Source: an uncultured virus (IMG/VR IMGVR_UViG_3300001682_000284) (lineage: Duplodnaviria > Heunggongvirae > Uroviricota > Caudoviricetes). Taken from it: a stretch of 64,000 bases of DNA. The DNA lies in the IMG/VR virus record IMGVR_UViG_3300001682_000284, one strand, 5' to 3'. How positions within the stretch are numbered: position 1 is the first letter of the stretch; each line of letters opens with the position of its first letter. A model generated the notes under the pieces. It was not told the DNA's origin, ran no database searches, and was given only the letters and a program-made list of their open reading frames with translations. Both the position numbers and the translations under genes were made by a program. Below are positions 5,592-62,222 of this stretch, piece by piece.

Positions 5592-6971
5592 TTATTTTTT
5601 CTTCTTTGCAAAGTATTCTTTAGGGTTTATTGGTGAACGTACCAGCTTAACATTGCCAACTTTTTTCCATTTCCAAGATTTCTCAAAGTTTCCCTATTTA
5701 TCTCCATCTTGTATCCATCCACCTTTCCAAGTTCCACCTTTCCAAGTACCGTAATACCAAATGCCGTCCTACCATGTTCCATTATGCCATGTCGCCCCAA
5801 CCCAACTTCCATTTTTCCAAGTTCCATTATACCAATTTCCACCACTAAATTCTCCGTCATACCAAACACCATTCATCCATTTTCCACCAGACCATCTTCC
5901 ATCTTCCCAAGTACCTTTATTCCAAGTTCCCTGATGATGACTACCAAACTCCCAAGTTCCATCTTCCCATATGCCATTTTGCCAAACACCACCTTTCCAA
6001 GTACCACCCTTCCAAGTGCCATTTTGCCAATCACCCTCATGCCAAGTTCCATTAGTCCAAGTACCTTTTTTCCAAACACCATCGAGCCAAATTTTAGCCA
6101 TCCATATTCCATCTTTCCAAATGCCACCAAACCAATTTTTGGTTCTAGTTCCACCATTCCAAACTTCGTTACTATTCTTTCTTAAGAACTACGGATTATT
6201 GTCATTATATATGTCTGAATCTATCTTATATATTAAATCTTCAGGAGGTTCTAATGTTCCTTGTTTTTTAAATAACCAATCGGTAACAGTGGATATAAAT
6301 GCATTATAATTCACTCCAGCCTAACCATAGCACATCTTAGAAACATCAAATTTAATATCATTGGGATTTTCGATATTAACATATGGAATTATATTAATTC
6401 TCGCTATTGGATATTGGATATTGGTATCACCAGGATAAATAAGATATGCAATTAAAAGCTTATTAACCTACTATTTTACAAGATCAGAATAAATTCCAGG
6501 TTTTGGTCTTTGCGTTCCTTTGGAATATATTCTATTTGTTCCCAAGTCTTTACAACTCGTCCACCCTCTATCAGTAGACATACCAGCAATATCATATGGG
6601 TGTCTAGATATGCATACTATAGGTTTTTGTTTCGTAGTTTGTCTTGCAGGGTCGTTATTGAATGGTTGCAACAACTAGGGTTTAATCTTTTGAAGAACCT
6701 TTCCAACTTTCTAAGTTCTATTATACTTTTTGTTTTTAGCTAAGCCTTTTTCATAGTCTTCCAACTAATACTAATTAGAAGATAAAACCTTTTCTATTTC
6801 TTTTTCTATTTTGCTAGTTTGTTGAATTTTAACATTACCACTTAATGGAACATATACTCTACTTTTATTCCCAAACCAACTTGCAAGTCTCTTTTTATCC
6901 CAATTCTTACTATATTGTTTAGCAACACTTAAAGGAAGTGCCTAGTATATTAAATCCCCAAGTTTTATCAT
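5592..6971 (-). CDS. 459-aa protein with an ISRHPYDIAGMSTDRGWTSC domain and C-terminal GxWxxGxW repeats; probable virion-internal protein
   Basis: One frame joins ORF-track pieces 6471..6674 and 5769..6101 through TAGs; starts MIKLGDLIY*A and ends at TAA. Confidence 0.8.
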
Positions 6972-7047
6972 GTATAAATTTATCTCCTCGTTTAAAAGCG
7001 AATAGATCACTCATAAATCGCTGTTTAAAGGGTTATTTATTTTTCTT

Positions 7048-7403
7048 TGGTGGATCTGACGGGTACTGCCCCCGTGTCTTGACAATCTACTCTAAAGAAA
7101 TTATTTACAAGCTTAGTTTATTCCATCTTTAGTAATCTCTCGAATGGAGGACTTAAACAATCTCATTCGTTCGATATTCCATAATACTCTATTCAGCTAT
7201 TGGAACTCTTCACTGAAAGAGATTGATTATGGTCGTACTACCCTGAGGTACAAATCAATGAACCTCACTCAGAGTAGGCTGTCAATTAAGCAGCAATTTT
7301 GTATTCGTTGCCAGTTATTATACTGTTCGTTTTTTGACTATATAGTAGTCACTCTGCTTGTTTCTTTTATTCTCTTACACCCGTCGAAAGCCAATACAGC
7401 CCC
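7048..7403 (-). ncRNA. ssrA: tmRNA
   Basis: 5' GGGGCTGTATTGGCTTTCGAC, tag ORF GGC AAC GAA TAC AAA ATT GCT GCT TAA (GNEYKIAA), 3' GACACGGGGGCAGTACCCGTCAGATCCACCA. Confidence 0.92.
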
Positions 7404-9350: not shown

Positions 9351-9836
9351 TCACAATTTCTACCACTTTTTCTAATACCATATCCATGTGCCACGCAGGA
9401 ATATACCATTCTTGTCTACTGGCATCTTTGATAGCTATTGTGCTGGACCAACTAGTAGATTAATACTATTACCAAATATATTAGCAATATCCATTGCGTT
9501 ATCTATATTATATTCATTGAACCAATGATAGTGCTTCATATAATATGATAGATCAAAATCAGGATATGTATTAGTGAGATATCGTAGCATGCGTATGGTG
9601 AACTGTCCACGACCTGCACATAGATCGATATTATATTTATTTGGTAATGGTGGACATAACTATATCATATGATCTACTATTTGCAATGGGGTGAATACCT
9701 ATCCCATCTATTTCTTATTCTTAGTATTAATAGCAAATGGTGTATGCTATAGTATTGGAAATATAGTCATATCTATATCTGGTGATAGTCCAGTATATTT
9801 CTTGAATCTAGTCTATAGTTCGGATAGTGGTTTCAT
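9351..9836 (-). CDS. Small N6-adenine-methyltransferase-like SAM-binding protein (TAG-recoded)
   Basis: MG*VFTPLQIVDHMI (GEVFTP motif) and IDLCAGRGQF (motif I); no NPPY seen. Confidence 0.7.
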
Positions 9837-12800
9837 AGTGGTTTGTGCCCACCATAAGTGGTTTGTGCCCACCATAAGTAACTTTTTCATTAATTAGATA
9901 TCGTTCTTTCTGTTCTGGATCAAAATATTTGGCATATCTTTCTGCATCTTCTGGATAATAGTCTGGTATCCAATTGATAGCCCACCGTAATTCTTCATCA
10001 GTTAATCCTAATTCTTTTGCTACCATTTCGTCTGTCCATTCGTGAGTATATGTTGGCATGTACGGGACTGAAGATAATATTACGTTCTTATTAACTTTAT
10101 ATATTGATAAAGAAAATCTCATTAGCTTCAAATATAAATATTTAAAAAATGATAATTGTTCATTTGGTGTTTTAAACAAGAAATTGTTGTTCTTTTTATA
10201 TCTATCTGTAAGATGACTGCTTGGATTCTTAAGTTGGATAAATGTAAAAAAATCCCGTTCTTTTGTATTCCCTATAATGGAAGCAAATCCAACATTATAT
10301 GTTGCATCGTCTTTAATATCCACATGCATAGCTAGATTACTTTTAGTGCAATAATGTAGTACTTTATTTAAAATTGATTTATATATATCAGTATTACCAT
10401 GTTGGTCTATGGTGGATATATCAATTGGATTTCCACAGTTTTTATCAAATATATTTATAAATATATCATTTGGTGTGCCAGCAATATTAAACAATTTATT
10501 TGCGTTAATAACAGACTCATATCGACAAAGATCATTTGAAATTAATCCCTTTACTGTTTCCCCAATTGTCTTAGTCTTTTTTTCATTTTTTGATAATAAC
10601 CATCCTGCAGGATGAATAAAACACATTCTACCATCATCTGATACCAGTGGATATACTTCCTTTATAATCTTAAGATCTAGATTATTAGGATTATACGGTG
10701 GGTTACTTATCATGTAGTCAAATTTCATATCTTTATATTCCTTATGTAATTTCAATGCATCTTTTTGACACAGATTACATTTATAATTATTCTTATTCAG
10801 TAATATATTAGCCATATTAACTCTTATTCTATCAATATCATAGCCAAATAATATATTTTCGAGTATATATTTTTCTCTTTCTATATCATCTTCTATATAT
10901 GATTTCAGACCAATCATATATTGCTCTTTGGCATATAGCAGAAAGCTACCAGTACCCATACAAGGATCAATTATGGTCTTATGAGGATTGGTGAAATCTA
11001 CATCTAGCAATTCAAACATCCTCTTGATAATGACTAAGGGAGTCTTGCAATATGCACCCTTCATATTAAGATTCTTCCGTACGAACTCATCATATGATTC
11101 ACTAGTAATATTTGATTCAAAATAATCAAGAGCGTCAGCAAAATTTAATATAGTACGATTAATATCAACAATATCTACAAATTCTTTGGCAAACCAATAT
11201 TTGAAATCCTCTAATGAAACTCCTGTGATATCTCTGAATAGTTCATCTTCAGGAGTATTCATTATATCATCAACAGTTTTCTCATTATTCGGTGTTATAA
11301 ACAAAAACTCTGGCAATTTAGATATTGCTGTTCTTATCTTCTTAATGGTCTCCATTAATGATTTCTTATCTATATCTTTATCTGCACTATACTCAGGCAT
11401 CATACCATCATTGACTTTTGTATTGGACATGGTCTTGCCTTTATTAGTATCATTACTATTGACATCTACATAATCACTCTTCTGTGCACTCTTAACCTTT
11501 GATACACTATTTATTATCTTATCATCAATATATTTCGGATTAAGCGGGATCGAATAAAACCTTTCAGAGAATTTTCCATGCTCTCTGAAATTATTAATGA
11601 CATCAGATATATTGATCTCATTCCAACTATTATCCGTATAGTCTAGTATTGGTGCATAGTTCAGATACTCTCTAATACTATCGCTAATATTACTATTGAT
11701 ATCTTTATTAGTTCTTTCGCATATATCATATACCATAGATAGACATCTCTCAGGATTGAAATCGAATACATGGCAGTATTGTTTATTAATACTCACATTT
11801 GGTGATTGAGCTCGGAATATTGCCTGAGTGTACTCTTCCAAGGATTGTCCACTATCCAGCATGAATACACCATTCCACTCAGGAATAGTCACTCCCTCTT
11901 TGAATCTCTGGCAAGTGAGTGTAATAGTCCCTCTATTGTTGGATTTGGCTCGATTAATCATATTCTTAACATCATCTATTTGAGTGATCTCATTTCCTGT
12001 TGCTATAATAATCTCATATCCTGAATACTCAGACATAGTCTTCATCAAATTAGCGAGAGCAATGATTCCTTTAGTATTCTTTGGTAATACCCATAGAGTA
12101 TGATCGAGTCCTGATACTAATCTATATGGTGATAATGAGTTGTGTCCATATCGTCCTGCTATTGATTTTAGTAATAGTTCTGCAGATCCTTTGTATAGTA
12201 AATCATGGTTGCTATCGTCATACGCAATAATCTTATCTAATGTCAATCCCTCAGCATCCGTATAGTATTGTTGGGACAGCTTAGCATCATTAGATATTCT
12301 TATAATATGAGTTTTCATCGTAGGCATAGATATATGTGCACCATGACCAATTTTCAACTCTTTTTCTTTTTCTCTTTGCTCATCTATATATGTCCATGAG
12401 TATATTTGATCATCATCAAATCGTCCTCTAGCTATATCCTTATAGGCGGTGCCTGATACATATATAGTCTTTTCATGAGGAATAGTATTCAATAGATCTC
12501 TGAATGATATAGTATCACCACCATAATGATACTCATCTGCGATGATTGCATCAAATGTAATATTCCGAGATAATAGATTTGTCAGATTTTTCTGAAATTT
12601 CTTCACAACATCATCTAAATTGCCATTTTCGGATTTGTTCATCATCAATTGAGCACTCGAAAGGAATATATTGCATTTGGTGTCGCTAATATGGTTTATC
12701 TCTCTGTTTGTCTTATAATCGATGATCTGGAAATTCTCAAAAGCTACGTGATCATTGATATCATCTTTTAGCGAATCAAACACATAAGGTTTATATGTCA

Positions 12801-13431
12801 ATACTAATACATTTTTCCATTGCAATGATTTAGCCACATTCAATATAGTAAAATTCTTACCAAATCTCATCTTTGCGGCCAATAGAAATTCATCATACCC
12901 AAATTTGAATGCGTCAATAATTTTATCATGTGCAATCTTTTGTTCATCTCTCATTGGATATGAGTGGATTCTCGATACTCCATATAGTATAGTATTAATT
13001 CTTTTAATAATAGTTTCAAGATTGGTATTAGTAAAGAACTCCGTACTACGTATATTATCTAGAGCTTTATCATTACGATATGCTCCATCTTTTAGTACTA
13101 TATCTGAATGGAGTATATGTTCAATGTCATATGCTGATTTATATTTAGATTGTGATTTTATATATTCAGTGAGGTCTATTGCATATAGTATTAGTGCTTG
13201 TGTATTATGAGTGCCAAGATATCCATCAATAGTAGAAACAGGATTAGTACCTTCACTAGCATTTGTTCCATATTGACCAATCTTATATTCTATACCATCA
13301 TAATTAGTTGGCTCTTTGCTATTCTTAATGGGTGTCCAGATATATAGACCCTCTCCATTGATATCAAAGTTAAATGATTTATGCAATTGCTCTGTAACAA
13401 ATATTCCACGACCTTTTGTCGGATATATCAT
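9808..13431 (-). CDS. Fused SF2 helicase/ATPase and N6-adenine DNA methyltransferase (type IIG/ISP-like restriction-modification protein); no internal TAG
   Basis: AKMRFGKN (Walker A-like), DEYHYG, SGT, QAIFRAQSP; DPCMGTGSF and SNPPY; ends in TAG at 9808 (read-through would extend it 27 codons to a TAA). Confidence 0.85.
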   Translation of the reverse strand: MIYPTKGRGIFVTEQLHKSFNFDINGEGLYIWTPIKNSKEPTNYDGIEYKIGQYGTNASEGTNPVSTIDGYLGTHNTQALILYAIDLTEYIKSQSKYKSAYDIEHILHSDIVLKDGAYRNDKALDNIRSTEFFTNTNLETIIKRINTILYGVSRIHSYPMRDEQKIAHDKIIDAFKFGYDEFLLAAKMRFGKNFTILNVAKSLQWKNVLVLTYKPYVFDSLKDDINDHVAFENFQIIDYKTNREINHISDTKCNIFLSSAQLMMNKSENGNLDDVVKKFQKNLTNLLSRNITFDAIIADEYHYGGDTISFRDLLNTIPHEKTIYVSGTAYKDIARGRFDDDQIYSWTYIDEQREKEKELKIGHGAHISMPTMKTHIIRISNDAKLSQQYYTDAEGLTLDKIIAYDDSNHDLLYKGSAELLLKSIAGRYGHNSLSPYRLVSGLDHTLWVLPKNTKGIIALANLMKTMSEYSGYEIIIATGNEITQIDDVKNMINRAKSNNRGTITLTCQRFKEGVTIPEWNGVFMLDSGQSLEEYTQAIFRAQSPNVSINKQYCHVFDFNPERCLSMVYDICERTNKDINSNISDSIREYLNYAPILDYTDNSWNEINISDVINNFREHGKFSERFYSIPLNPKYIDDKIINSVSKVKSAQKSDYVDVNSNDTNKGKTMSNTKVNDGMMPEYSADKDIDKKSLMETIKKIRTAISKLPEFLFITPNNEKTVDDIMNTPEDELFRDITGVSLEDFKYWFAKEFVDIVDINRTILNFADALDYFESNITSESYDEFVRKNLNMKGAYCKTPLVIIKRMFELLDVDFTNPHKTIIDPCMGTGSFLLYAKEQYMIGLKSYIEDDIEREKYILENILFGYDIDRIRVNMANILLNKNNYKCNLCQKDALKLHKEYKDMKFDYMISNPPYNPNNLDLKIIKEVYPLVSDDGRMCFIHPAGWLLSKNEKKTKTIGETVKGLISNDLCRYESVINANKLFNIAGTPNDIFINIFDKNCGNPIDISTIDQHGNTDIYKSILNKVLHYCTKSNLAMHVDIKDDATYNVGFASIIGNTKERDFFTFIQLKNPSSHLTDRYKKNNNFLFKTPNEQLSFFKYLYLKLMRFSLSIYKVNKNVILSSVPYMPTYTHEWTDEMVAKELGLTDEELRWAINWIPDYYPEDAERYAKYFDPEQKERYLINEKVTYGGHKPLMVGTNHYETTIRTID

Positions 13432-13502
13432 AAGTAACTCCTTAGTATACTATTTAATACAATTATTATAACCAAAATTGAAAAATAGTTTTCAATAAAA
13501 TT

Positions 13503-13535
13503 AAAGCACCTTTGATGTGATCTCAGGTGCCTTTT
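13503..13535 (-). terminator. Intrinsic terminator after the DUF2828-like gene
   Basis: GCACCT...AGGTGC hairpin flanked by T/A runs. Confidence 0.55.
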
Positions 13536-13554
13536 GTTGAGGTTACAAACAAAT

Positions 13555-15025
13555 TTATTTAATATGAGAGTATCTTTCATTATTAGTTACCTCTCTCACA
13601 AGAGAAAGTAAATCTTCGTATCCTTTTTTCAATACAAAGTTAATTGCATTCTGAGATGCACCAGAAACAAGTAATACATCTTTATCGTTCATTTGTGCTG
13701 GCAAATTCTTTAATCGTCCATTGACGTTCCAAAAGACAACAGTGGGCATAGTATAACCAGCATTAGCATATTCAGATTTAATCATTTCTAATGCATTCTG
13801 ATTTGGGTTCTGTGCACACTGGTCAAATTCCATATCAGAAATGATTACTACATGAGTAGGCATTTCATTCTCTGGAACTCTGTTAGCGTTAGCTCTGTCA
13901 AGAATCATACGGAAGACAGCCTCAAGGTTGGTATTCATGCCCCAAGGAGCATTCATGGTATTCTTTACCTTTTCTACGATGTCAGCACCAGTGATCTTTT
14001 GGAACTCTGGGCGATCGCTGAAAGTGATAAAGTAGTTACGGAAAGTCTCGTTAGGATTGTTCTCTGCCATGAACAGACCGATACCAATAGACATACTAAT
14101 TGGGATGTTCTGGTTGAATGTCATAGAACCGCTGACGTCGATGATAGGAATAGCTCTGAAGTCCTTTGGTAGGTCATCAAGTTGCTGTAATCCCTTCCAC
14201 TGCTCGTTTAGGAGCTGACGATTGGTGTCATTCATAGTGAATCTTGTGATACCACTATTCATGATTTCCTTAACGATTTCGTATGGGAATAGTCTCTTTG
14301 CATGAAGCTTAGCCTCGCCAGCAACTACCTTCTCCACGAATGGCTTAAGGATGTTGTGACGATGGAATGCCTTCTTGTACTTCTTCATTGCGATAGAAGG
14401 CACATGCTCGAGATTGATTTTGTCCCATTCCTTAGCAGACATGTTCTGCTCAACTACGTTAGTTAAGCTAACAATCTGGTGACGGTATTCGCTGTAAGAG
14501 TTGATGAATCCGTTGGAACGCATGTATCTTACGACCTTACCGTATTGGGAATTCTTACGAGGCATCCACTTAGCAACAATACCCTGAAGAGTCTTGTTCT
14601 TCATTAATTCGAATAGGAAGGTAATTATTGCGTCAGCTGACTCTTTCTTGTCGTTCTGAACAAAGTGATTTGCTAGATAGACTAGGTCGTCAACACGGAC
14701 TATGTTCTGGGTGAAGTTCTGATATTGTAGAACACTTTCTAAAATATTCTTATCGAGCCATTGTGCTACGACTCTGAAGAATCTACGTTCTCCAAGTCCC
14801 TTCTCAATGTCGCGAGCCCAGAATAGGATACGTAATGCTGAAGTTGCATCCTTCTGATATGCCTCGTTGAACACAGTAATTATATCGTTATCGGACATGT
14901 TACGTGCAGCTCCGCATAGGAAAAATAAATCTACAATAGGGTTACCACTTGAAGAGTTAGTAGCCATACCATTTGCAGTACTGGTGTTGTTCCTTAGATT
15001 TGCTTGAATGANTGAATGAGTTCAT
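13555..15025 (-). CDS. DUF2828/TROVE(Ro60)-like protein with a C-terminal VWA domain; no in-frame TAG
   Basis: FWARDI..GLGERRFF, AKWMPRK, DVSGSM (MIDAS), ISDMEFD, VFWNV; true ATG probably 15025 after AGGAG, with the frame broken at the N at 15012. Confidence 0.85.
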
Positions 15026-15058
15026 AACTTTTTTCTCCTTTATTTAGTTATAAATTGA

Positions 15059-15714
15059 CAGGGACATTATTAGTATTCTCATTTTCGGCAAGAATTAATA
15101 AGTATTTTGGCTGTTAGTCCCTAAAGGTTATCGTATTAACTTAAATTGAACCATTTCCGCATATATCAGACTGTAAATTACTTGGGCATCTAGTATATAC
15201 GTACTCAGGCTCTATAAGAGGAAGGCTCGGACGAACCAAAACCCACCGAATTGTTGGCTGTATGCCCAAATCCGTTAGGATATTAAAATTAATAGCGATC
15301 CCTTTCCCATATAGCTAGTTCATTTTCACAAGGTCAACTAGATATACAGTACTTAGGTCGCAGGTTGCTATCTCATTTATCAATTAAAAGAAATGTTGCT
15401 GCATGACCTTAACCATGTAGGTGTACTATCCAACATAGATATGCTGGGGGGTTTCTACAAAATTGAGTTACTACAATTTCCATACACTTTTTATTTGACA
15501 GAGACTAGCATATGTCGTCATAGTCACTCGAGTTTATACTCCAGTTGCCCAGAGTCTTGGTGTTTAACCAACGAAAACAGGTTATACCCGGTTTCCATTG
15601 CCTTTCGGCTTTGCTTTTGCTGTGAGCCTCAACCCCGAGGGTATAATTTTCAGGTCATTTACAAGGACGTTTAAGGGATATCCAATTATCATTTTTAACA
15701 TTGCTGTACGTCCT
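15059..15714 (-). ncRNA. Array of five ACAGC-stem RNA motifs upstream of the DUF2828-like gene
   Basis: Copies at about 15059-15121, 15181-15269, 15361-15409, 15499-15630 and 15662-15714, each with stem-(A/G)CAGC(A/C)A-insert-complementary stem. Confidence 0.6.
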
Positions 15715-15791
15715 AGACTGAGTTAAAAATTAATGTATCTCACGTATTAATAATCGGCTTGTCAACGTCCTTTCATCCTATGAAATACATA

Positions 15792-15868
15792 TGGCACCAC
15801 TAACGGGATTCGAACCCGTACAACCCGGTTTTAGAGACCGGTGTCCTAACCAATTAGACTATAGTGGC
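15792..15868 (-). tRNA. Amber-suppressor tRNA (anticodon CUA) with a tRNA-Glu-like body
   Basis: GCCACTA TA GTCT AATTGGTTA GGAC A CCGGT CT-CTA-AA ACCGG GTTGT ACGGG TTCGAAT CCCGT TAGTGGT G CCA; clean 77-nt cloverleaf. Confidence 0.93.
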
Positions 15869-15881
15869 ACAAAATTATTTT

Positions 15882-15953
15882 TGGAATAGATGAGATTCGA
15901 ACCATCACATCACAGATTTAGAGTCTGCCCACCTACCGTTAGGGTGCAGTGGC
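15882..15953 (-). tRNA. Second CUA-anticodon tRNA-like gene, degenerate acceptor (probable pseudogene)
   Basis: GCAGA-CTCTAAA-TCTGT arm, GGTTCGAATC, 5' GCCACTG without a matching 3' strand. Confidence 0.55.
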
Positions 15954-16009
15954 GTGACTCATTTTTAGCATACAATTATAATATAACTCATTTTTAAAAA
16001 ACTGCCAAA

Positions 16010-16597
16010 TTATTTTTTAATCTCTTCAAATACATCGGAGGCAATAATATCTGCCGATTGTAATAGAGTGGTCAACTTCGAGAACCTTCTTGCTTCATCA
16101 TAGATTTTGCCAGAAAAATAATCTGTCTCCATGAATGATCCCATATGGTAACGAATAGCTACTATTTCTTCATTAGTTAGAGCAACTAATGGTAATGCTA
16201 AAACTATTGATTTTGTAGCGTGTCCACAAGGAAAGGTTTCCTGTTCATCATATCCAGAATATTCCTACCATTTATTATTCTAATCCTTTTTCCACTTTTT
16301 GACAATTGTATAATGATTTATCTTACAAAGATCGTGACAGAATGCTACATAAAATATAGTTTCCTCTTGGAACTTATCAGAACCTAACATTTGATTTAGA
16401 TGGGATAGCACCTTGTAGACATTCTTACAATGCTGATATAGTCCACCCTCAAAGTTCCCGTGATTGTTTCTACTCGCAGGTGCGATAAAGAAGTCACCCT
16501 AAACTAAAAACTACAAGAATTTAGTGGGATCCCGTTTAAATTCAATGGTTTCTACTATTTCCATTAAATCCATAAAGTTCTTTGTTGCTAATGACAT
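16010..16597 (-). CDS. HD-domain phosphohydrolase (TAG-recoded)
   Basis: APAS..NHGNFEGGLYQH, CHDLCK, GHA, IRYHMG, LQSAD. Confidence 0.85.
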
Positions 16598-16615
16598 GTA
16601 TTCTCCTTAAATGTC

Positions 16616-16798
16616 CTATGTTTCTAAATATCTATCTAATCGATGTTTTCTGTTTCTTAAAAACTTCTCTTTCTTGGTTTCATAAGTCTTAGATCTAAAT
16701 CTTCCATCATAATAACCATCTGATTTGAGTTGTTCACGCATGTATCCTAATTCCTTTTTAGCCTTGTCCTTTGGAGTTTGAGGATGCTTGTGTTTCAT
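16616..16798 (-). CDS. Small basic hypothetical protein
   Basis: GYYDGRFR motif; terminal TAG would read through three more codons to a TAA at 16607. Confidence 0.6.
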   Translation of the reverse strand: MKHKHPQTPKDKAKKELGYMREQLKSDGYYDGRFRSKTYETKKEKFLRNRKHRLDRYLET

Positions 16799-16811
16799 GA
16801 TATTAATTCCT

Positions 16812-18143
16812 TTACATCTTTACAAGTGCAGTTTTTTCAAATATTTCTATTAGCTCTTCAATTGTTAGAATGATTAATAGGATTTCCGCAGGCAACCCCT
16901 TCGTTTCCTTTGTAAGAGTATCCCTAACCCATTCGTTTATTTCTTTATTAGAATAACCACAATCCGAAATATATTGCAAAATATTTTTTGCTTCTTTATC
17001 TCCCAGGAGAATACCAAATTCATTATTGAAATCTAGCTCCTTAACTTCCTTTAACTTTTCAACCAATTTTTTATAAAATGAAAGCTTGTGTGTGCTATAT
17101 AGTGGGACTTCAATATAACTAAATGCGTGTCGGATCTTATTCATTAATTGTTTGATATCCAAGCCAATTTGGTAAACGTATAAAAGATGATTTAATCTCC
17201 ATTTTGGAAATTCGTTTTTATATAATTCGTAATATTCTGCTATACCTTGCTCAGTTTTGGAATGCTTAAGATTAAGATTCTTCAGCTTCTTGGGATCATA
17301 ACACGCTGGAGATTTGACTAGTCTTTTTACTTCAAATTTCTCAATCAAATTCTGTTTAGTAAAGAACTCTTCATTTCCAGCAGGATGCCATCCCAACAGG
17401 GATATATAGTTGAGAATTGTGGATGGTAATAATCCCGTTTGTAACAAATGATTCACAGTAAAGTCTCCATCTCTCTTACTAAGTTTTTTACCCTCTTCAT
17501 TGCATATTAGAGACAAATGATAAAATTTAGGAATACAGAACCCCAATGCATTGTATATTAATTTATGATATGGAAATGAACTTAACCATTCATTTCCACG
17601 AAATACATCTGTAACCCCCATTAATCCGTCATCAACGATTGAGGCTAAATGGTAGGTGGGATATCCATCTGCCTTTAGTAAGACTATGTCATACAACTCT
17701 TTGGTATTATATTTAATAGTTCCTCGTAATTCATCTTTACAATTAATATAGTAATCTTCAGAATCCTTCACTCTTAATTTGATACAATAAGATTTGGAGA
17801 CATATGGGTTATTAGTTAAATTGCAGTTACATTCATCGGATTCTTTCTCACATTGACAAATGTAAGCACAGCCATTATTAACTAATTTGTGAGCATAATG
17901 TTGATATAGACCTAATCGTTCTGATTGTCTATAATACTCATCCCAATTTAACCCAAAGGTTTCAAGAGTAGACATTATCTCTTTGATATGCTTAGTCTTA
18001 CTACGTTTTTTATCAGTATCTTCAATCCTAAGGATGAATTTACCATTGTTTTGCTTAGCATACAACCAACTATATAGAGCAGTTCTTAAATTTCCTATAT
18101 GCATTTCTCCGGTTGGGCTGGGTGCAAATCTTGTAACAGTCAT
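16812..18143 (-). CDS. gltX: Glutamyl-tRNA synthetase (class Ib), TAG-free, divergent C-terminal anticodon-binding domain
   Basis: RFAPSPTG, HIGN, LRIEDTD, YRQSER, DGYPTYHLA, RGNEW, KLSKR, LLGWH; start MTVTRF at 18143 after AGGAG. Confidence 0.93.
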   Translation of the reverse strand: MTVTRFAPSPTGEMHIGNLRTALYSWLYAKQNNGKFILRIEDTDKKRSKTKHIKEIMSTLETFGLNWDEYYRQSERLGLYQHYAHKLVNNGCAYICQCEKESDECNCNLTNNPYVSKSYCIKLRVKDSEDYYINCKDELRGTIKYNTKELYDIVLLKADGYPTYHLASIVDDGLMGVTDVFRGNEWLSSFPYHKLIYNALGFCIPKFYHLSLICNEEGKKLSKRDGDFTVNHLLQTGLLPSTILNYISLLGWHPAGNEEFFTKQNLIEKFEVKRLVKSPACYDPKKLKNLNLKHSKTEQGIAEYYELYKNEFPKWRLNHLLYVYQIGLDIKQLMNKIRHAFSYIEVPLYSTHKLSFYKKLVEKLKEVKELDFNNEFGILLGDKEAKNILQYISDCGYSNKEINEWVRDTLTKETKGLPAEILLIILTIEELIEIFEKTALVKM

Positions 18144-18556
18144 TATATTGCTCCTTTTCCATGAATCCATTTGGCGATGTCTTCGGCAGGAACAAGATTA
18201 AATACTGATTCATTTACTGAACATATTGCCTCTATCATAGCCTTAATCCTTTCATCTGGATAAACTACTACAAATTTGTATGGACTTGAAATGGTACTGA
18301 CTTTATATTTGATAGCTATAGTGTAGTTTTCCATTCTATGAAATACGGCATCGTTTGAGAATGCTGGTGAAAATTTATCCCTGTTAGATCCGTGCCCGTA
18401 TTCAACATATAATCTTCCAGCCTTAATTTTATTAGTGGACTCATTAACTTCAATAATCTTGTAAAGAATCATTCCATATTCAGCGTTCACATTACCTTGT
18501 CCAGGATAAGCACAATACATTCCTGATTTAATTTCAGTTCCCAAGAAATCTGTCAT
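18143..18556 (-). CDS. Hypothetical protein
   Basis: ORF coupled to its neighbours by overlapping start/stop codons. Confidence 0.7.
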   Translation of the reverse strand: MTDFLGTEIKSGMYCAYPGQGNVNAEYGMILYKIIEVNESTNKIKAGRLYVEYGHGSNRDKFSPAFSNDAVFHRMENYTIAIKYKVSTISSPYKFVVVYPDERIKAMIEAICSVNESVFNLVPAEDIAKWIHGKGAI

Positions 18557-18750
18557 GACGTTTCAACCTCTTTAATTGCTTTCACAATTAATGTTGGACA
18601 ATTGTAATATTCCCGATAATCGTGGTCTCCTGCTTGTCCCGAAACTACTCCAATTTTCATTCCATCCATACTAAATCCAAAATAACTGCGCATGATGTGC
18701 TCTAATTGAGCCCCGTCTAACACTAATTTAACTTCTTTCTTAACCTTCAT
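18553..18750 (-). CDS. Hypothetical protein
   Basis: ATGA-coupled ORF. Confidence 0.65.
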   Translation of the reverse strand: MKVKKEVKLVLDGAQLEHIMRSYFGFSMDGMKIGVVSGQAGDHDYREYYNCPTLIVKAIKEVETS

Positions 18751-18917
18751 TTTATATCTCTCTTATAACTTATATTTGCATGTTTCATTATCTGTATAGG
18801 TTTATTATCAAATTGATCCAATGCTATTAATCCCGCAATGCATATCGCTGGGATTATTGCAAACGGAAATGCAATTATTACTAATATAACTCGTAATACT
18901 AAAATAACAAGTTTCAT
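18747..18917 (-). CDS. Small membrane protein
   Basis: AGGAG RBS, MKLVILVLRVILVIIAFPF hydrophobic stretch. Confidence 0.55.
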   Translation of the reverse strand: MKLVILVLRVILVIIAFPFAIIPAICIAGLIALDQFDNKPIQIMKHANISYKRDIK

Positions 18918-18927
18918 TTTGTACTCC

Positions 18928-19338
18928 TTAAAAACTCTATCTCCAAACAAGTGCCATATGGATATCCGTACTTTTACATTCAGGACAATATAGTCCATAT
19001 GTGCAAGTGTCCCATTCTGTTTTACAACTGTTACATTCCATATGTTTAAACACTGATTCCATATCTGGTCCAACTTCTGGATCATACCCTTTCAACTATT
19101 CTATATTTACCTTTTTACGCTATGGATAAACAACAAAAAAGTCTACTTCAGGATCGGCTTCATCGTTAGCCATATCTCTAATACCATTTAAGGTACAATG
19201 CACTAGATGTCCTTCAGCAAACCATGGAGACAACCCGTCTAACTTAATAGTAGCAGTGGGATAATCCCCATTAAATATCTTAACTACAGTTCCATATCCG
19301 TAGTTATTACTATGAACCCTGTCGCCTATTATTAACAT
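18928..19338 (-). CDS. Hypothetical protein with a C-terminal Zn ribbon (TAG-recoded)
   Basis: Read-through of the TAG at 19120 adds CNSC...CPEC and ends at TAA 18928. Confidence 0.65.
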
Positions 19339-19538
19339 GACTTCTCTTTTACTTCTGGAATGAATATACAATCACTATTAGTAGCATAGTTAACACCATA
19401 TTCTGCAGGCTCGATAAATCTGTAAATCCACCCGCCAGGAACTCTAGTAATACTAAACAAATTGTCATCAGCCTTGTAAATAGTGTTTAGTGGCATATCA
19501 AGCATTTCTTCGTAAGTCATAATATGTAACTCCTTCAA
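19332..19538 (-). CDS. Hypothetical protein (RVPGGWIY family)
   Basis: RVPGGWIY motif common in small phage proteins. Confidence 0.7.
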   Translation of the reverse strand: MKELHIMTYEEMLDMPLNTIYKADDNLFSITRVPGGWIYRFIEPAEYGVNYATNSDCIFIPEVKEKSC

Positions 19539-20542
19539 TATATTGTTAATTCGTAATCTTCGGCTAATTCAGCCATTTCCCTATTATACATGGAAACGAC
19601 TACTAGTAAATATGCCCTCTTAATTGATTCATAATCGGCAGTTTTAGGGAGAGTATGCACCTTCTCCAATTCAGAAAGTCTTTCCTTGTATTCGTTTACA
19701 ATCTCAGGAACATCCTCAACGGGAGTGTTTCCAAGTTTAATGGACATGATGTCATCATATGCTTGCCCTTTAAATGGAAATTCAATCTTGCCCGCTGTAA
19801 GTAATTGATATCCCTCCTCTAATAAACGGATAGTGTGGGACATGAACTTTGGCTCATATTTATTAATAAAGATACCTTCAATTCTATGTGAGGCTCTTGA
19901 AAATCTATCTTCAATTCGAGCAATTGCTTCTTTAATTGTAATGCCAGATGGAAACTTCATATCACCAATTTCGTATACAATGTCTACAGGATTTTGATTT
20001 GCTTGACCTTTAAATAGTTCAGGGTCTAGATGGAGAACAGCTTCTCGCATTTTAGCTTGCTTTGTTTTGAGCTTGGCTACTCTCTTTAGTGAGTTCAAAC
20101 CTGCATTTAGTAAGACATAATTCTCAGACTTAGTATAAGACTTCTGCTCTTGAGACTTAGCGTAGCCAATGAATCTGTCGATTAATTTGGCATTAACAAA
20201 CATTTCAGGATGGTCAAGGATAAGAGATTTAAAGTCAGGGTCTACATATTCAATGCAATCCTCTGGCGCAAACAGCATTTCGAGTACATTGGGATTATTG
20301 TCAGCACACAGTTTAATGAACTTTTTCAGATGAAAATACTTCTCATCTACGGCATCCTTATCGTTCTTTCCATTCTCTTTCTTGGATTTAATGGACGTAT
20401 CCATTTCGTCCTTAGTATTGAAAGGGTCTATAAAGTCTTCAAAGGTATCTTCTATGTATACTCCCACATAGTCCAAGTCGGAAGTGGGAGTATTAAGTCC
20501 GTAAAGGTGTGAACCTGATTTAATTTTAAACAAAACCTTCAT
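19535..20542 (-). CDS. Pol-beta-like nucleotidyltransferase (RNA-repair-associated Nuc-transf family); TAG-free
   Basis: SGSHLYGLNTPTSDLDYVGVY, NPNVLEMLF, GYA, HTIRLL. Confidence 0.88.
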   Translation of the reverse strand: MKVLFKIKSGSHLYGLNTPTSDLDYVGVYIEDTFEDFIDPFNTKDEMDTSIKSKKENGKNDKDAVDEKYFHLKKFIKLCADNNPNVLEMLFAPEDCIEYVDPDFKSLILDHPEMFVNAKLIDRFIGYAKSQEQKSYTKSENYVLLNAGLNSLKRVAKLKTKQAKMREAVLHLDPELFKGQANQNPVDIVYEIGDMKFPSGITIKEAIARIEDRFSRASHRIEGIFINKYEPKFMSHTIRLLEEGYQLLTAGKIEFPFKGQAYDDIMSIKLGNTPVEDVPEIVNEYKERLSELEKVHTLPKTADYESIKRAYLLVVVSMYNREMAELAEDYELTIY

Positions 20543-20598: not shown

Positions 20599-21561
20599 TC
20601 ACTTTTTAATCTTGTAATACCTACGTTTTAGAGGTGTAGTTGCGAATTTAACCCTGTAGTATTTACTAAACTCACAAAAGCAGTTCTGGATGTTAGAAAG
20701 TGACAAATATCTCTTATCCTATGGTAAATCACACATTAATTCTTGCAAACTCACACCGTAATAATTCGTTAGCCAAGTGTTTAAATTCTCTTCAACGAAA
20801 TGTATGAACAAATATCTTTTGGTTACGGGAATCTTCGGACAAACGATGTCTACTCCCCTCAAAGCTCCCTCTCCCAGATGTACGAAGTCATTCTCCGTGA
20901 GTTTTGTCTAGGGACAATAAGTTAAATCTACATATATCTGGTAAGCCAAAAATGGTCCAATTCCCTTGATGGATAAAATCTCATCAAAGACTTTTGTTCT
21001 ATTATCATTTAATATGTGCTATACGATTGTCTAAATATTCTACTTATAGCATTTCCAAACGATATAGAATGGTCTTAGATTGGGTGGAATGCTCTAGGCA
21101 AAGGTATCGTGTGCCCTGACTGCTCCACTATGCATGTATGCGGGTCTATATAGAATTTCATCTGTGGCTATATTTTCTATGTGATAATTTAAGAATTCGT
21201 TGAAGTCTTCATTCTTAATAAATGACTACCTTATGGGAAGTTTAATTAGCTTATACTTTGATGGTTCATTAAAGATTCTAAATATAATGAGGTTAATTAC
21301 CTTCTATTTGAGAGTCAATTCCTTGTTTAAGCATATCTCATTAAGGGCGAACTTCGTAACAGTGTCCTAAATTCGTCTTACATTTGTAAAGGAATAGGAT
21401 TTAAGAATTTCATCTTCCGTCCACGGATAAGGTTTGCCCTCAACATCCTTTAATAAGTGAATCTTGTATCTCTATATAATCCAATAAAGAAATAGCTTAA
21501 GATTCTCCTCATTCAAATTCTAATCTATAATAGGTTTAATCCTTTCATAGATTTCACTCAT
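20599..21561 (-). CDS. alpha-glutamyl/putrescinyl thymine pyrophosphorylase clade 1-like (5hmU DNA kinase family)
   Basis: PYPWTEDEILKSYSFTNVRR, IIFRIFN, GIGPFLAYQICVD, QNCFCEFSKY. Confidence 0.8.
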
Positions 21562-22093
21562 TTATCAATTCCTTTAATTTCTATTTTAATTGATCATAGG
21601 CTTTGATATCGTCGCAACAGACATTAATAACATTCAATCCTAATTGTTCTGCATATCTTGCAATTCTAGCTGAACCAGCGGATTTAGTTATAAGATTCTG
21701 AGTTCTTTTGAGATTCTTGGGCTTACCCTTACTTCTATGAAAAACTCTTTCCTATAATGTATCCAAGGAACAGAACAGATGTATTATAGTAATATCTCTA
21801 TGAAATTTCTTTTGTAGTTCTAAAAAATAGTCAATATTTATAAGGGATAGAACTATCATACCCTACATTAAAACTATATCCTTATCACCCATCCAAATCT
21901 TTTTTAATACATCTCTTCTTTCATTATTTGTGGCTCTCATAGGGTCTGCACCTCCAGTGTAGACTCCCTATACCTATTTCTTTTTATATTCTCCTACAGC
22001 CTACGAACTTTTAAATGTATCTAAAATCCATCCAGCTGTAGAACTTTTACCGGTAGCGTTAGCTCCTATTAAGTGTATAAAGTGTTTCTTCAT
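21554..22093 (-). CDS. P-loop nucleotide kinase (hypermodification cluster)
   Basis: GANATGKSS, YTGGAD, VLM*G. Confidence 0.8.
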
Positions 22094-23115
22094 TTAGCCC
22101 AATCCTTGCATGGGGGTTTGTGCACCAGAGTCATATCTTCCAATGGTTGATCATCGCTCCACCATCCCACATCCTATTTTGTTATATAGCCTGTTTTAAT
22201 TAGGTTTTTAATGTTTTCTAAGGCAATCTTTCTCTTCTTGGTTCCGTAAACATCTGTATGTCTTCCGGTTAACTTGAATATCTTGAACATTTCAAGGTTA
22301 AAGGGTAAAGGTTTAGGGAATTTCAACCAAGGATTCTCTTCTATTATTTCTATGGGACTCTTGCCCGTATTAAGCATTGCATCTACTAATTCCTGACAAT
22401 AGAAGGTACAACTTCTAATTTCATCTAAATCTAGCGTTGGTTGAAAGTGCCTGAATTCTATTGTATTTGTTTGATCAAATAATTGCATAAAATTGACATG
22501 CAATCTACGGCACAATGAGTATATAGGTTTACCAGTAATTTTATTTCTGTTAAATCTAGACATGTAGAACTATTGAGGATCTTTTGATTTCATTGTAAAA
22601 TTATATTTATCCTAACTTAATTGAAATACAAAGCTATTCTAAAATCTATATGCTTCTTGTGCTAATTTGTAATCCTATTCGTTAGGAAACTATATTCTAG
22701 TGGGTTTTGGAAACACACTAAATGATAAATCCGCTATTTCCCTTTGCCACTTGTAGAAATAAGTCCATGCCTTTTTCAGGTATTCTATATCCTAAACAAG
22801 ACCTGGAACTCTTACATGAACATGGTGGAAACAGGAATAATTGATTGATAATTTACCCTGTTCTCTTAAAACCTTAAATATCTTATCACATTCCTGAACT
22901 TGCCCCTAGATTGTAGGAGTGGGTTTAACATTAACTTCTCCACCATATCTATTTAATATTTTCCAAGGATCATTTCCTATTCCATTGCTATTAGTTATAT
23001 CTACTTCTTTAGGGTTCCACTTATTTCCCTATGGTAATATAATTTTGGTATCAACATCTGCTAATTCCAACTCCGTTCCATAATCAAATGTCTATTTAGG
23101 ATATTTGTGATCCAT
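22090..23115 (-). CDS. Putative amidoligase (COOH-NH2 ligase)
   Basis: YGTELELAD, GGEVNVKPT, HHVHVRVPG, TIEFRHF. Confidence 0.8.
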
Positions 23116-23121
23116 CCGAGA

Positions 23122-23706
23122 TTATCCTCTCTAAGTTATTAATTCAACTATTTTCTGTCTAAAGACAGGGAAATCCTACTTGTTAGTAGTGTCATATTCG
23201 TGAATCTACAATTCTGTGCTATCTCTGAATTTAGCTAAATCTTGAACTGCGGATCTTGTTCTAATGCCCAATCTTTTTACTCTTACATCGGTAAGTTCTT
23301 TTCCACCACTTCTTTCAGTGATACGAACTCCCAGCTCTTCGATAGTGGCGTAGAGATGAATAACTAAAACTATTCTATCCTTCATCTTTTTCATATCGAT
23401 ATAATGCTGTAATTGCTTATGTCCGCTAAGGAACATCCCTTCACCAATGACTACATCAGCATCGGACATCCATTTCTATGTAATTAATGCCATTCTTTCG
23501 GCATCGTTCATACTAGCCTTTCTCTCTTTGGAATGGAGGGCATCGGCTCCACCAGTATGGTATGATCTACCATTTCTTATTCTGTATGTTCCTACAGTTT
23601 CTACTGTAATTCCATGTTTAGGGAGCTATTCCGATAGCCAACCTGCTGTTGAACTCTTGCCTGTTGCATTAGCTCCAAAAAAAGTGATGTAATACTTGCT
23701 TTTCAT
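23122..23706 (-). CDS. P-loop nucleotide kinase, paralog of 21554..22093
   Basis: GANATGKSS, HTGGADAL, VIGEG. Confidence 0.8.
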
Positions 23707-24764
23707 TTTGATTCCTTTTTTATTTTATTCTAGTAAATGTTTCCGATAGTAGGTACTGATACGCTGTGTAAATATGTTAATTCTTGAGGCAAAGAGGGAT
23801 TGAACATATGATCATCCGTAAACCATTTCATTGCTGGTTTTCTAATACCTTTCCAATTTTGTTTTTCACCTAATACTTCGTGAGGGAAGTATTCCTCTCT
23901 AAATTCCCAAAAAATATTCCAATTAATACCTTCCGTGATGTTCTTTTCGCTTGTTATAATCTACTATTGCTGACGATCGATATAGTAACCTAGATACCTT
24001 TTGTTCCAATATAGCTTTTTGTAAGCACATAATACTGTCTATATGTTCCAATATGTTACAGGCAATTCTGGAAGCACTTCCTTAAGATTATCGTAAAGTT
24101 CAACTAAATGAGTTTTTAAAAAGGGATAATCTATTGGTTTCTTAGAAGGTTTATGGTGCATGGTAATCATATCAAGTTCATCAAGAGCATAACATAATCC
24201 GTTTCTGCAACTCTAAGCCTATTTAAGTTCTAATCCTGTTGGATGTATGGGAATTTGAGTTAGTTCAAATACAGCCTATATTAGATTAAACAAACTGAAT
24301 CTTCCATAATAGAATAGCTTGGAAGTTTCTTTGTAAATTTTATTATAGCTTTCAGCCTAATTTCCTTCAATAATTAATTTGTGGTAAAAATTCTATTGGT
24401 TCTAGCCCATTATCTCTTTGTAACTTTTAATCATTTCGGGTACTTTGTTGAAGTTCTTAGCTTTAGCTCTATCCGTTTGGAAGAATAGCTTAGACTTCTT
24501 ATCGTTCCACCAGCGTTGTACTCTTTCTAAGTTTACATTTTCGAAGTCGGGGAATTCATTAAACATATAATAGGCTGTGGGTGCACAATAGGATATACTA
24601 TATAAATACGCCAGCCAATAGCGTTGCTATATGTTTAATTCATGCCTATCTGCAATGTATCTTAAAGAAGGATATGCTGGATCGCAGTCCCCTATGTACA
24701 TCATCAAGGCATAGTAGTTGATAAAATCCTGTTTACGATTTCCAGTAACCTTGAATTCATTCAT
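23703..24764 (-). CDS. alpha-glutamyl/putrescinyl thymine pyrophosphorylase clade 2-like (amino acid:DNA transferase)
   Basis: DCDPAY, LNI*QRYWLAYLY, FQTDR, YYGRFSLF, CRNGLC, NI*TVLCAYKK, RYLGYYIDRQ. Confidence 0.8.
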
Positions 24765-25396
24765 ATTATCTCCTAAATCTTAAAGGATTCAACCATAGTT
24801 AAGTTTTTAACTAGTGATGGACTTATTCTAGCTATAGGATCTACTGCTGAAATAAACATTTCTAAATCCCCATCCTAATAGTGGTAGAGGGGTCGTTTGT
24901 TATTTCTAAATCCTAGTAACTTATCGGGTGTCAACATACATGCAGCAAGACTCCAATTAGGATATCTTTTCAATAAATCCAATATGGAGTGTCCCTATTC
25001 CATTAACTTTAATAGTATTTGAACATCGTTATCATTGCTAGCATCAATATCGTATAGTCTATGCCAATTAGAGGAATCACTCTGTTCCAACACTCCATTA
25101 AAGGAAATGTACCCTAATTTCTCATCGCCTTGTGGTAAATTGTTATCCATATCATCATAGTTTCCACTAGTGGAGTACCTATTATGGAATAGAATCTTTG
25201 CACTGGGGACACAAACTATCTTTAGATATTCCTATATCTAATCCAAATCAAACGTCTTATAAAGATCATATTTACCATTAATTAATGATACTATCCCATA
25301 CGCATGCGTTCCTCTTATATTAAGAGTCTCAATAGCTCTTGACAATACCTAATATCCCTATGATCTTTTAACTTTTGCTCCAATTATGCCACACAT
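24761..25396 (-). CDS. Class II (Ntn) glutamine amidotransferase
   Basis: N-terminal MCGIIG, RGTHAYG, HNRYSTSG, FNG, RPLY. Confidence 0.85.
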
Positions 25397-25809
25397 TAAA
25401 TCTCCTATTTAGTAACCTAGTATTTTACATCTTTAATCTTTCTGTAGCAATTCAATATCATTTGCTTTAACTGCTTTTGAGGATCATTTTTAGATCTCTT
25501 GTATTTCAACCATTTAATCTTGTCTTCTGTGAAGGGAAAATAGATTTGAACTATATTTGGTTCAATTTGCTTGATATCGAATATTTCATAAGATTCAAGC
25601 ATATCCATTAATCCATGAATATCTTCCTATTTTGTTCCAAACGCAAAACTGATATAAGTTGGTCGAACTTTACAACCAAAATTAGAAAGTTGATACACCA
25701 TCTAATCGTGATCAATATTATAACCACCGAACTTATTCAAGTATGCGTTTAAGAAGAAATTGTAAAACTTCAACTTATATTTGGAGGAAATACGTTCATA
25801 ATCAGTCAT
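25396..25809 (-). CDS. Hypothetical protein (TAG-recoded)
   Basis: Extends ORF 25417..25608 both ways; TAATG coupling to the GATase gene. Confidence 0.6.
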
Positions 25810-26038
25810 GAAGAACCATCTTTTGATAAGATTTACTTTTAATGTTTTCTGTTAGATATTTACCTTTGGATTCTGCTTCCGTTAAAGCCTTCCATTCTGA
25901 GGGAGTTACTTGCTTGTATCGATATTGATCTCCACCCTTGTACTAAACAATAAGTTCCTGTTTTTCTTCAGAATACCACAAAGTTTGAATTGCGGAACTC
26001 TAAAAGCTGTCGAATTTAACAAAGTTAGTTTCGTTCAT
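25802..26038 (-). CDS. KTSC-domain protein
   Basis: SSAIQTLWY...LIV*YKGGDQYRY..V....W..L..AESKGKYL..NIK. Confidence 0.85.
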
Positions 26039-26059
26039 TTTTGATCTCCTTGGTTGTTT

Positions 26060-26155
26060 AAAATATTGTAACTCATTTTTGAAAAAACCTTGCACAATTT
26101 TTGCTTCATATTCCAAAAATTTATTTGGGTATTTTTTCTAAATTGGTTATAATTA
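26060..26155. promoter_or_regulatory. Divergent promoter pair at the strand switch
   Basis: Minus TTTTTCAAAAATGAGTTACAAT and plus TTTTTCTAAATTGGTTATAAT. Confidence 0.6.
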
Positions 26156-51327: not shown

Positions 51328-51370
51328 TTATAATTGATATTAATTAATAGTAATTAGGAGCAAACATTGT

Positions 51371-62220: not shown

Positions 62221-62222
62221 TT

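Follow-up and report, generated by a model that had tools for sequence, protein, structure and literature searches.

A phage glutamyl-tRNA synthetase gene beside a glutamate-type amber tRNA, a candidate pair for reading TAG as glutamate

The 64,000-nucleotide stretch of DNA analyzed here in full (the window; IMG/VR virus record IMGVR_UViG_3300001682_000284) appears to belong to a large phage in which TAG stands for glutamate in the majority of genes. Our subject is a glutamyl-tRNA synthetase (GluRS) gene on the minus strand and, 944 bp from its stop codon on the same strand, a tRNA gene with a CUA anticodon, tRNA(CUA). The GluRS open reading frame (ORF) was called at 16812-18170, contains no TAG, ends in TAA and encodes 452 amino acids from its first ATG; an internal ATG at 18143, which shares bases with the stop codon of the ORF upstream (18143-18556), leaves 443 codons and is the likely start. 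Landfill, sludge, digester, wastewater and groundwater samples contained DNA nearly identical to the window (20 runs, 15 studies). Four runs, each from a different study, have contigs over the region; one of X19 spans 15792-17642 and one of X12 15962-18014.

On sequence criteria, the gene encodes a full-length bacterial-type GluRS. The product passed the TIGR00464 gltX equivalog model with 363.2 bits against a cutoff of 289.95, residues 12-427 aligning with model positions 3-446 of 470, and its translation carries both class I signatures, HIGN (HIGH type) and KLSKR (KMSKS type), of which H24, G26, N27, K229, S231, K232 and R233 are identical throughout the 30-member clade of related enzymes described below. 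In a Pfam scan, the catalytic domain PF00749 was the sole family returned (E = 3.3e-85); no family of the anticodon domain reached E ≤ 0.1. The intact catalytic core reported in the first-pass annotation, which had been made from the letters alone, is therefore confirmed. Its description of the C terminus as strongly diverged stands in part: because Pfam finds the catalytic domain only, the C-terminal third can be called diverged in sequence, but the TIGR00464 alignment extends to residue 427, and the R..LTG...G.P motif in which a difference had been seen is simply the consensus of the GluRS clade. Structure prediction, which had been proposed as a check, gave a complete GluRS fold in an AlphaFold2 model built with 30 relatives as input (mean predicted local distance difference test score [pLDDT], 89.9; predicted template-modeling score [pTM], 0.86), and Foldseek aligned this model with the whole GluRS structures 2cfo, 3afh and 1j09 at template-modeling (TM) scores of 0.72-0.78 over 476-500 columns. 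The top match was 2cfo, the non-discriminating GluRS of T. elongatus, with many GluRS structures near-equal in score. Judged from the model, the enzyme keeps the full alpha-helical anticodon-binding fold despite its sequence divergence.

An enzyme of this kind might in principle work outside translation, either by adding glutamate to a tRNA base in the manner of GluQRS or by feeding the DNA hypermodification suggested by neighboring genes. GluQRS models do match the catalytic half of the protein (212 bits), and a gene cluster that includes a 5-hydroxymethyldeoxyuridine (5-hmdU) DNA kinase begins at 20599. However, every GluQRS and GlnRS (glutaminyl-tRNA synthetase) model fell under its cutoff (212.5 bits against 256 for GluQRS), the gltX equivalog model was passed, and the modeled protein has a full C-terminal anticodon-binding fold, which is absent from GluQRS. 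On these grounds we rejected a GluQRS or DNA modification role, to which we give hardly any credence. As a separate observation, runs X19 and X12 carry an equal-length but diverged segment of 66 bases inside the GluRS gene (17393-17460, approximately residues 238-260), which hints at mosaic exchange among strains.

ARAGORN found eight tRNAs in the window, of which one has a CUA anticodon: tRNA(CUA), at 15792-15868 on the minus strand (68.4 bits with Rfam), with an encoded CCA end. In the Infernal and ARAGORN structures its acceptor stem begins with G1.U72, C2-G71 and C3-G70 and ends in G73-CCA; the D-stem GUCU/GGAC pairs G10-C25, U11-A24, C12-G23 and U13.G22; the anticodon loop reads CU-CUA-AA; and the variable loop has 5 nucleotides (GUUGU). 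The first-pass annotation had placed two CUA tRNAs about 950 bp from the synthetase gene, and one of them holds at the 944 bp given above. The other, at ~15889-15945 on the minus strand, scored 17.2 bits with Infernal against a gathering threshold of 29 (E = 1.5 in a 901-base search), matched model positions 9-63 only, went undetected by ARAGORN at 80% thresholds and folded into a CUA hairpin with a mismatched T-arm and no acceptor stem. We therefore excluded it as a gene and treat it as a decayed tRNA copy. The phage tRNA-Glu(UUC) that had been noted at 3972 was also recovered (3972-4046, minus strand; ARAGORN and Rfam); its D-stem, GACU/AGUC, differs from that of tRNA(CUA), it lies ~12.8 kb from the GluRS gene, and it is a possible second substrate of the enzyme. 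Downstream of tRNA(CUA), the X1 contig omits exactly 220 bp (15406-15627) of an ORF-free, GC-richer stretch that matched no Rfam family and could represent an optional insertion or a short mobile element.

With the standard bacterial code (table 11), most of the window falls into short ORFs, and reading through TAG reveals tail, replication and nucleotide metabolism genes as well as GroEL and RecA genes, for a total of 65 ORFs of at least 100 amino acids in the window. We tabulated 52 ORFs. TAG occurs in 42 of them, 530 times, compared with 773 occurrences of GAA and GAG, which makes it 41% of 1303 glutamate-equivalent codons, whereas the other 10 contain no TAG and 210 GAA or GAG (GAR) codons. 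The GluRS gene belongs to the second class, as the first-pass annotation had noted: it has no in-frame TAG and 37 glutamate codons, an outcome with a probability of ~4e-9 at the rate of the recoded ORFs. Between it and tRNA(CUA) lie a 60-amino-acid TAG-free ORF directly downstream of GluRS (16616-16798, minus strand), which ends in TAG, and a gene for an HD-domain phosphohydrolase (16010-16597, minus strand; phrog_28876, 3.8e-30), which proved to be recoded as had been claimed, with four in-frame TAG codons.

Eight of the 10 TAG-free ORFs lie in one mostly TAG-free block on the minus strand (9808-20542), which encodes a 1207-amino-acid protein with ResIII helicase and N6-methylase domains, a DUF2828/DUF7788 protein, an RlaP-type nucleotidyltransferase and GluRS, the other members being the 60-amino-acid ORF and three small ORFs. 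Three elements break up the block: tRNA(CUA), the recoded HD gene and a candidate 147-amino-acid ORF (18928-19371), which has three TAG codons and overlaps two small ORFs of the TAG-free class. Two TAG-free ORFs, 9808-13431 (1207 amino acids) and 16616-16798, terminate in TAG, a stop only in the standard code, and thus fit translation by a standard-code host. If TAG were read as glutamate later, these two ORFs would gain 27 and 3 residues, and such read-through could yield early and late forms of the proteins.

The main evidence for the meaning of TAG comes from the GroEL gene (47241-48860, plus strand), which has 23 in-frame TAG codons. A database search supplied the comparison set: 78 cellular GroELs and 42 full-length relatives from phages, the latter at 95-56% identity. 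At the 23 TAG columns, the cellular proteins hold E in 49% of cases, D in 14%, K in 12% and Q in 5%, a profile close to that of the columns encoded by GAR (E, 53%; D, 20%; Q, 5%) and not to that of the glutamine columns encoded by CAA or CAG (CAR; E, 22%; Q, 20%; K, 19%). When only columns with at least 90% conservation in the cellular set are counted, the consensus at TAG positions is E in 9, K in 2, D in 1 and Q in 1 (n = 13), compared with E in 13 of 19 GAR columns, and Q in 4 and E in 4 of 13 CAR columns. The 42 phage relatives give an independent signal, in that they hold just “Q” or E at most of the TAG columns. At the phage E columns, “Q” appears in 76 of 374 cells of relatives 78-87% identical and in 250 of 680 cells of those 56-65% identical, whereas at true Q columns E appears in 11 of 286 and 34 of 520 cells, respectively. 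Because a real glutamate-to-glutamine change is not plausibly six times commoner than the reverse, this asymmetry fits the notion that “Q” in the database relatives is TAG to which gene-calling pipelines applied code 15 (TAG as glutamine) and that it exchanges freely with GAR. The composition of the protein agrees: cellular GroELs have ~15 Q and 50 E, the phage protein has 26 Q, 34 E and 23 TAG, and the sum of Q and E stays roughly constant.

The RecA-like gene (41330-42631, plus strand) has 27 TAG codons. Of the 10 TAG sites aligned with E. coli RecA, 4 face E and 1 faces Q; the Glu of the FIDAE motif, which we take to be the catalytic glutamate, is among the four. Summed over GroEL and DnaB, the log likelihood favors E over Q by ~5 natural-log units. 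Among the 40 of 1840 differences between the window and the run contigs that were listed, none falls on a TAG codon. Reading TAG as glutamine, with the tRNA charged either by host GlnRS or by the phage GluRS followed by amidation by host GatCAB, has precedent, since TAG to Gln and TGA to Trp are the only reassignments given for phages with a non-host code in one preprint (bioRxiv 10.1101/2021.08.26.457843), and of 29 phage tRNA(CUA) assayed in E. coli extract 28 are reported to insert glutamine and 1 alanine (bioRxiv 10.1101/2025.10.30.685624). One TAG also lies at a GroEL column that is Q in 78 of 78 cellular proteins, alongside the one opposite a RecA Q. That invariant column, however, holds E in 18 of the 42 phage relatives, the GroEL TAG columns as a whole resemble Glu rather than Gln columns, and a glutamine reading would leave RecA with 8.8% Gln and 2.1% Glu. 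We consider that TAG most likely means Glu and not Gln. As a side observation, the public predicted proteins of this phage group (P0122-P0163) appear to have been produced with code 15, which would place Gln at every TAG position, where the evidence favors Glu; this is an annotation issue.

The tRNA itself bears on the same question, and we compared it with 152 distinct tRNAs from all of the loci fetched. Its GUCU/GGAC D-stem was found in 10 of 15 Glu, 10 of 22 Gln and 1 of 12 Ser tRNAs and in no other isotype. The first base separates the two main candidates, U1 being present in all 22 Gln tRNAs, G1 in all 15 Glu tRNAs and A1 in all 4 Trp tRNAs; tRNA(CUA) has G1. A BLAST search against GenBank phages gave seven matches, of which six are annotated, all six as tRNA-Glu. 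Major determinants of E. coli tRNA-Glu include U11-A24 and U13-G22 (PMC9976931), both of which tRNA(CUA) carries, along with A37 and U35 from the same set. A glutamine identity might draw on its G73, G10, U35 and weak 1-72 pair. Its G1, C2-G71 and C3-G70 nevertheless depart from the U1-A72, G2-C71 and G3-C70 that tRNA-Gln is reported to retain (PMC3927822), and amidotransferases are described as dependent on U1-A72 (PMC9976931), so that the route through Glu followed by amidation is disfavored for a tRNA with G1. Together with the GroEL and RecA results, these marks make a glutamine meaning of TAG very unlikely in our estimation. The ancestry of tRNA(CUA) is ambiguous, and we used identity marks instead of overall similarity; by these marks its body is Glu-type and not Gln-type. 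A pattern scan of IMG/VR for CUA tRNAs with the GUCU/GGAC D-stem found 12 loci, of which ARAGORN called a CUA tRNA in 10, all with U1, and no GluRS lies within 6 kb at any of the 12. The pattern of the tRNA(CUA) anticodon arm gave no matches in IMG/VR.

A protein search returned about 30 full-length relatives of the GluRS (98-42% identity), some on contigs of up to 262 kb and none with a precomputed anticodon-domain Pfam match. The next matches were cellular GluRS, mostly from Patescibacteria, which covered just the catalytic 64-75%. In a tree of 250 GluRS sequences, 30 of 30 relatives formed one clade (support, 0.94), whose members are probably all phage-borne; the tree shows no clear cellular sister group, and the clade together with P0034 and L110 occupies one side of the midpoint root by itself.

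If “Q” in these databases stands for TAG, it also offers a test of whether the GluRS genes avoid that codon. At the E columns of the GluRS clade, “Q” occurs in 1 of 147, 18 of 407 and 14 of 503 cells in successive identity tiers, compared with 6 of 374, 76 of 374 and 250 of 680 in GroEL relatives of similar divergence. This contrast serves both as a control for equating “Q” with TAG and as evidence of selection that keeps GluRS free of TAG, and it suggests that the gene stays TAG-free across its clade.

Because CUA and the glutamate anticodon CUC differ solely at base 36, loss of Arg358, the residue of T. thermophilus GluRS reported to contact nucleotide 36 (PMC12088422), is the change to be expected in an enzyme for tRNA(CUA). 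We examined the anticodon-pocket columns in a joint alignment of the 30 clade members and the 87 nearest cellular GluRS, taking T. thermophilus numbering from an alignment of one cellular member, P0041, to 1j09. The column of Arg358 (G336 in the phage enzyme) holds G in 27, L in 2 and S in 1 of the clade members, compared with R in 86 of 87 cellular enzymes, so that the alignment of contact residues, another check proposed in the first-pass annotation, turned up the expected change. R416 (T. thermophilus R435) is retained in all 30 clade members and in 86 of 87 cellular enzymes. G425 (T444) is G in all 30, compared with T in 75, S in 8, G in 3 and P in 1 of the cellular enzymes, and L426 (P445) is L in 23, I in 3, P in 2 and Y in 2, compared with P in 87 of 87. 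With G336 in place of Arg358, the phage enzyme lacks the arginine by which discriminating GluRS of the T. thermophilus type reads C36. The substitution R358Q is reported to render GluRS non-discriminating (PMC12088422, PMC2978374), and in H. pylori GluRS2 the changes E334R and G417T shift preference from tRNA-Gln to tRNA-Glu (PMC2978374); we infer that G417 corresponds to T444. The anticodon pocket of the phage enzyme thus appears to be at least relaxed, and the retargeting to CUA proposed in the first-pass annotation would go beyond this.

Four independent lines, namely, the meaning of TAG, the tRNA marks, the conserved absence of TAG from GluRS and the pocket change, make it plausible, as the first-pass annotation had proposed, that the two neighbors act together. 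Our preferred reading, to which we lean without firm conviction, is that the phage GluRS and the adjacent Glu-type tRNA(CUA), its putative substrate, make TAG a glutamate codon, and it is probably through them that the new code is established. The TAG-free gene block, GluRS included, would be translated under the standard code of the host. The enzyme would then charge tRNA(CUA) with glutamate, possibly besides ordinary tRNA-Glu, the loss of the arginine that checks base 36 letting it accept A36 of CUA. Once both were made, TAG would be decoded as glutamate and the recoded genes would become translatable. In this sequence of events, we infer both the charging step and the timing of expression.

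Several observations weigh against this reading. The equation of “Q” with TAG was drawn from the protein sequences of the database relatives only and not from their DNA. DnaB, at ~30% identity, gave log likelihoods of -66.7 for N, -66.9 for E, -68.9 for K and -69.0 for Q, values that hardly tell these residues apart, and the alignment of the T4-gp42-like hydroxymethylase, with E at one of nine TAG sites, does not discriminate among residues. tRNA(CUA) departs from the E. coli glutamate set at C36, U34, G1-C72, U2-A71, A46 and the absent nucleotide 47, having instead A36, C34, G1.U72, C2-G71 and a 5-nucleotide variable loop, and the most similar single tRNA is a tRNA-Trp of Pelagibacteraceae (76.6% identity, identical anticodon arm). 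The effect of the residue at the Arg358 position is described as lineage dependent (PMC3927822), and Gly at that column also occurs in 7 of 70 IMG/VR GluRS loci and in 1 of 81 other loci, none of which has a CUA tRNA nearby. Distant co-occurrence of a clade GluRS with a recoded GroEL, which touches on another check proposed in the first-pass annotation, amounts to two equal longest-contig values: 60319 bp for both GluRS P0018 and GroEL P0139 and 61608 bp for GluRS P0395 and GroEL P0131. Finally, the phage's own tRNA-Glu(UUC), at 3972-4046, could be what the enzyme serves.

This last point leads to the chief alternative, an ordinary auxiliary GluRS that serves tRNA-Glu(UUC) or boosts the supply of Glu-tRNA while host GluRS charges tRNA(CUA). 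Many unrelated phage contigs bear a GluRS without a nearby CUA tRNA, the window's tRNA is the sole CUA tRNA among 95 tRNAs (from the first 152 loci and the window, 151 having been fetched for GluRS), and the unusual GACU/AGUC D-stem of tRNA-Glu(UUC) might require an enzyme of its own. The layout speaks otherwise, with the enzyme 944 bp from the suppressor and ~12.8 kb from tRNA-Glu(UUC), and so does the loss, throughout the clade, of an arginine for base 36 that 86 of the 87 nearest cellular enzymes have kept. Moreover, E. coli GluRS is reported to depend strongly on C36 (PMC9976931), so that the host enzyme would be expected to be poor on A36. We regard an auxiliary role as rather unlikely, though well ahead of the other alternatives, and still prefer the reading in which GluRS and tRNA(CUA) together assign TAG to glutamate. 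A bolder version of it, in which the GluRS clade and the Glu-type tRNA(CUA) co-evolved into a natural amber-specific, bacterial-type glutamate pair that alone converts TAG in a standard-code host with little cross-reaction with host tRNAs, is a tentative proposal and more doubtful than the reading itself. Were it true, TAG to Glu would be a third, so far unpublished, phage stop codon reassignment with a dedicated synthetase.

Relatives of the locus are distant in the collections searched. In IMG/VR, an alignment of the GluRS clade found 71 loci, the best at 54% identity on a fragment and the others at 44% or less; a metagenome scan found at least 80 loci, none above 44% among the matches listed; and 44 GenBank phage records matched the GluRS, all with less than 60% identity over the catalytic part. 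A degenerate pattern specific to the clade matched one genome contig (Pelagibacteraceae, with gltX on another contig) and nothing in IMG/VR. The best IMG/VR match to a GroEL alignment was 48% identical among the matches listed, the 1207-amino-acid ResIII/N6-methylase protein matched nothing in IMG/VR, and the DNA of 56992-63770 matched nothing among GenBank phages. The nearest cellular GroELs are those of Cloacimonadota (49-50% identity), which, with the digester, sludge and landfill origin of runs that contain the phage, gives a weak hint at this group as host.

Other features of the window may be noted. A phage transfer-messenger RNA (tmRNA; 7048-7403, minus strand) matched Rfam RF00023 over its full length with 66 bits against a gathering threshold of 47, ARAGORN being silent. 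In a phage with a reassigned stop codon, it may be relevant to how ribosomes are rescued at TAG early in infection. A cluster at 20599-26116 (minus strand) contains the 5-hmdU DNA kinase helical domain (PF18723, 6.4e-50), two P-loop kinase paralogs and an amidotransferase-like protein, and 55517-56236 (plus strand) encodes the T4-gp42-like deoxynucleotide hydroxymethylase (PDB 6l18, 5.5e-44); together they likely form a thymidine or pyrimidine hypermodification pathway. Three genes on the plus strand carry insertions that are likely inteins or homing endonucleases: the N terminus of the RecA protein matches a gp41-1-type intein (PDB 6qaz) at residues 6-128, the ribonucleotide reductase gene (49084-53717) is split around an endonuclease-like ORF (51371-52408), and the DNA polymerase B gene (56992-59955) contains an inserted Hint-like stretch. 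A recoded 472-amino-acid protein (5592-7010, minus strand) has many G-x-W-x-x-G-x-W repeats in its C-terminal half and matched no Pfam or PHROG family. The window sequence contains one N, at position 15012.

Reading of TAG as glutamate is known from the nuclear code of peritrich ciliates (NCBI table 30), in which TAA and TAG both mean Glu in eukaryotic nuclear genomes; to our knowledge, no dedicated synthetase is known for it. A GluRS combined with an amber-reading tRNA reportedly also exists in engineered form, in the archaeal orthogonal GluRS/tRNA(CUA) pair made for E. coli by Santoro et al. in 2003, whereas the candidate pair of the window is natural and bacterial-type. GluRS is strongly anticodon dependent, and a natural amber suppressor that inserts glutamate may rest on two to three pocket residues, G336 and G425-L426.

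With the non-discriminating GluRS and H. pylori GluRS2, the phage enzyme shares a pocket without the Arg358-type check of base 36 (PMC2978374, PMC9976931, PMC3927822). As described in these sources, non-discriminating enzymes accept G36 of tRNA-Gln and feed an amidotransferase, whereas the candidate substrate in the window has A36 and G1; an amidotransferase gene was searched for only within a general PHROG scan of 46 window ORFs. Unlike those enzymes, the phage clade has G-L/I in the 444-445 loop instead of T/S-P. The code 15 phages with a tRNA(CUA), reported from the crAss-like, Lak and phAss-1 groups (PMC10607447, PMC9523058), resemble the window phage in recoding TAG in most genes, in keeping standard-code early genes and in carrying a CUA tRNA, but the TAG columns of the window match Glu, and its tRNA has G1 where the 10 of 10 D-stem-matched IMG/VR suppressors have U1. 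For phAss-1, a specific synthetase is reported not to have been found (PMC10607447), and synthetases for suppressor tRNAs are said elsewhere to be seldom found (bioRxiv 10.1101/2021.08.26.457843). A full-text literature search, whose scope excluded the supplementary tables of two bioRxiv preprints that may list synthetases, returned no report of TAG to Glu in phages.

The closest parallel is the “code change module” described for the TGA-recoded Jade phages, in which tryptophanyl-tRNA synthetase (TrpRS), tRNA(UCA) and release factor 1 (RF1) are encoded in the standard code (bioRxiv 10.1101/2021.08.26.457843), and phage TrpRS:tRNA(UCA) pairs are reported to have been used as orthogonal systems (bioRxiv 10.1101/2025.10.30.685624). 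No release factor family appeared among the PHROG matches of 46 ORFs in the window, whereas the Jade module has RF1. As in that module, the synthetase gene of the window phage adjoins a suppressor tRNA, is written in the standard code and stands beside recoded genes, and the role proposed for it is a code switch; the amino acid of the synthetase, glutamate, coincides with the meaning that TAG appears to have. The two differ in codon, amino acid and enzyme, the Jade phages having TGA, Trp and TrpRS where the window phage has TAG, Glu and GluRS. A TAG-to-Glu phage that has a GluRS alongside an amber tRNA of glutamate type would add a reassignment to those described, and its GluRS would be the first enzyme proposed for an amber switch.

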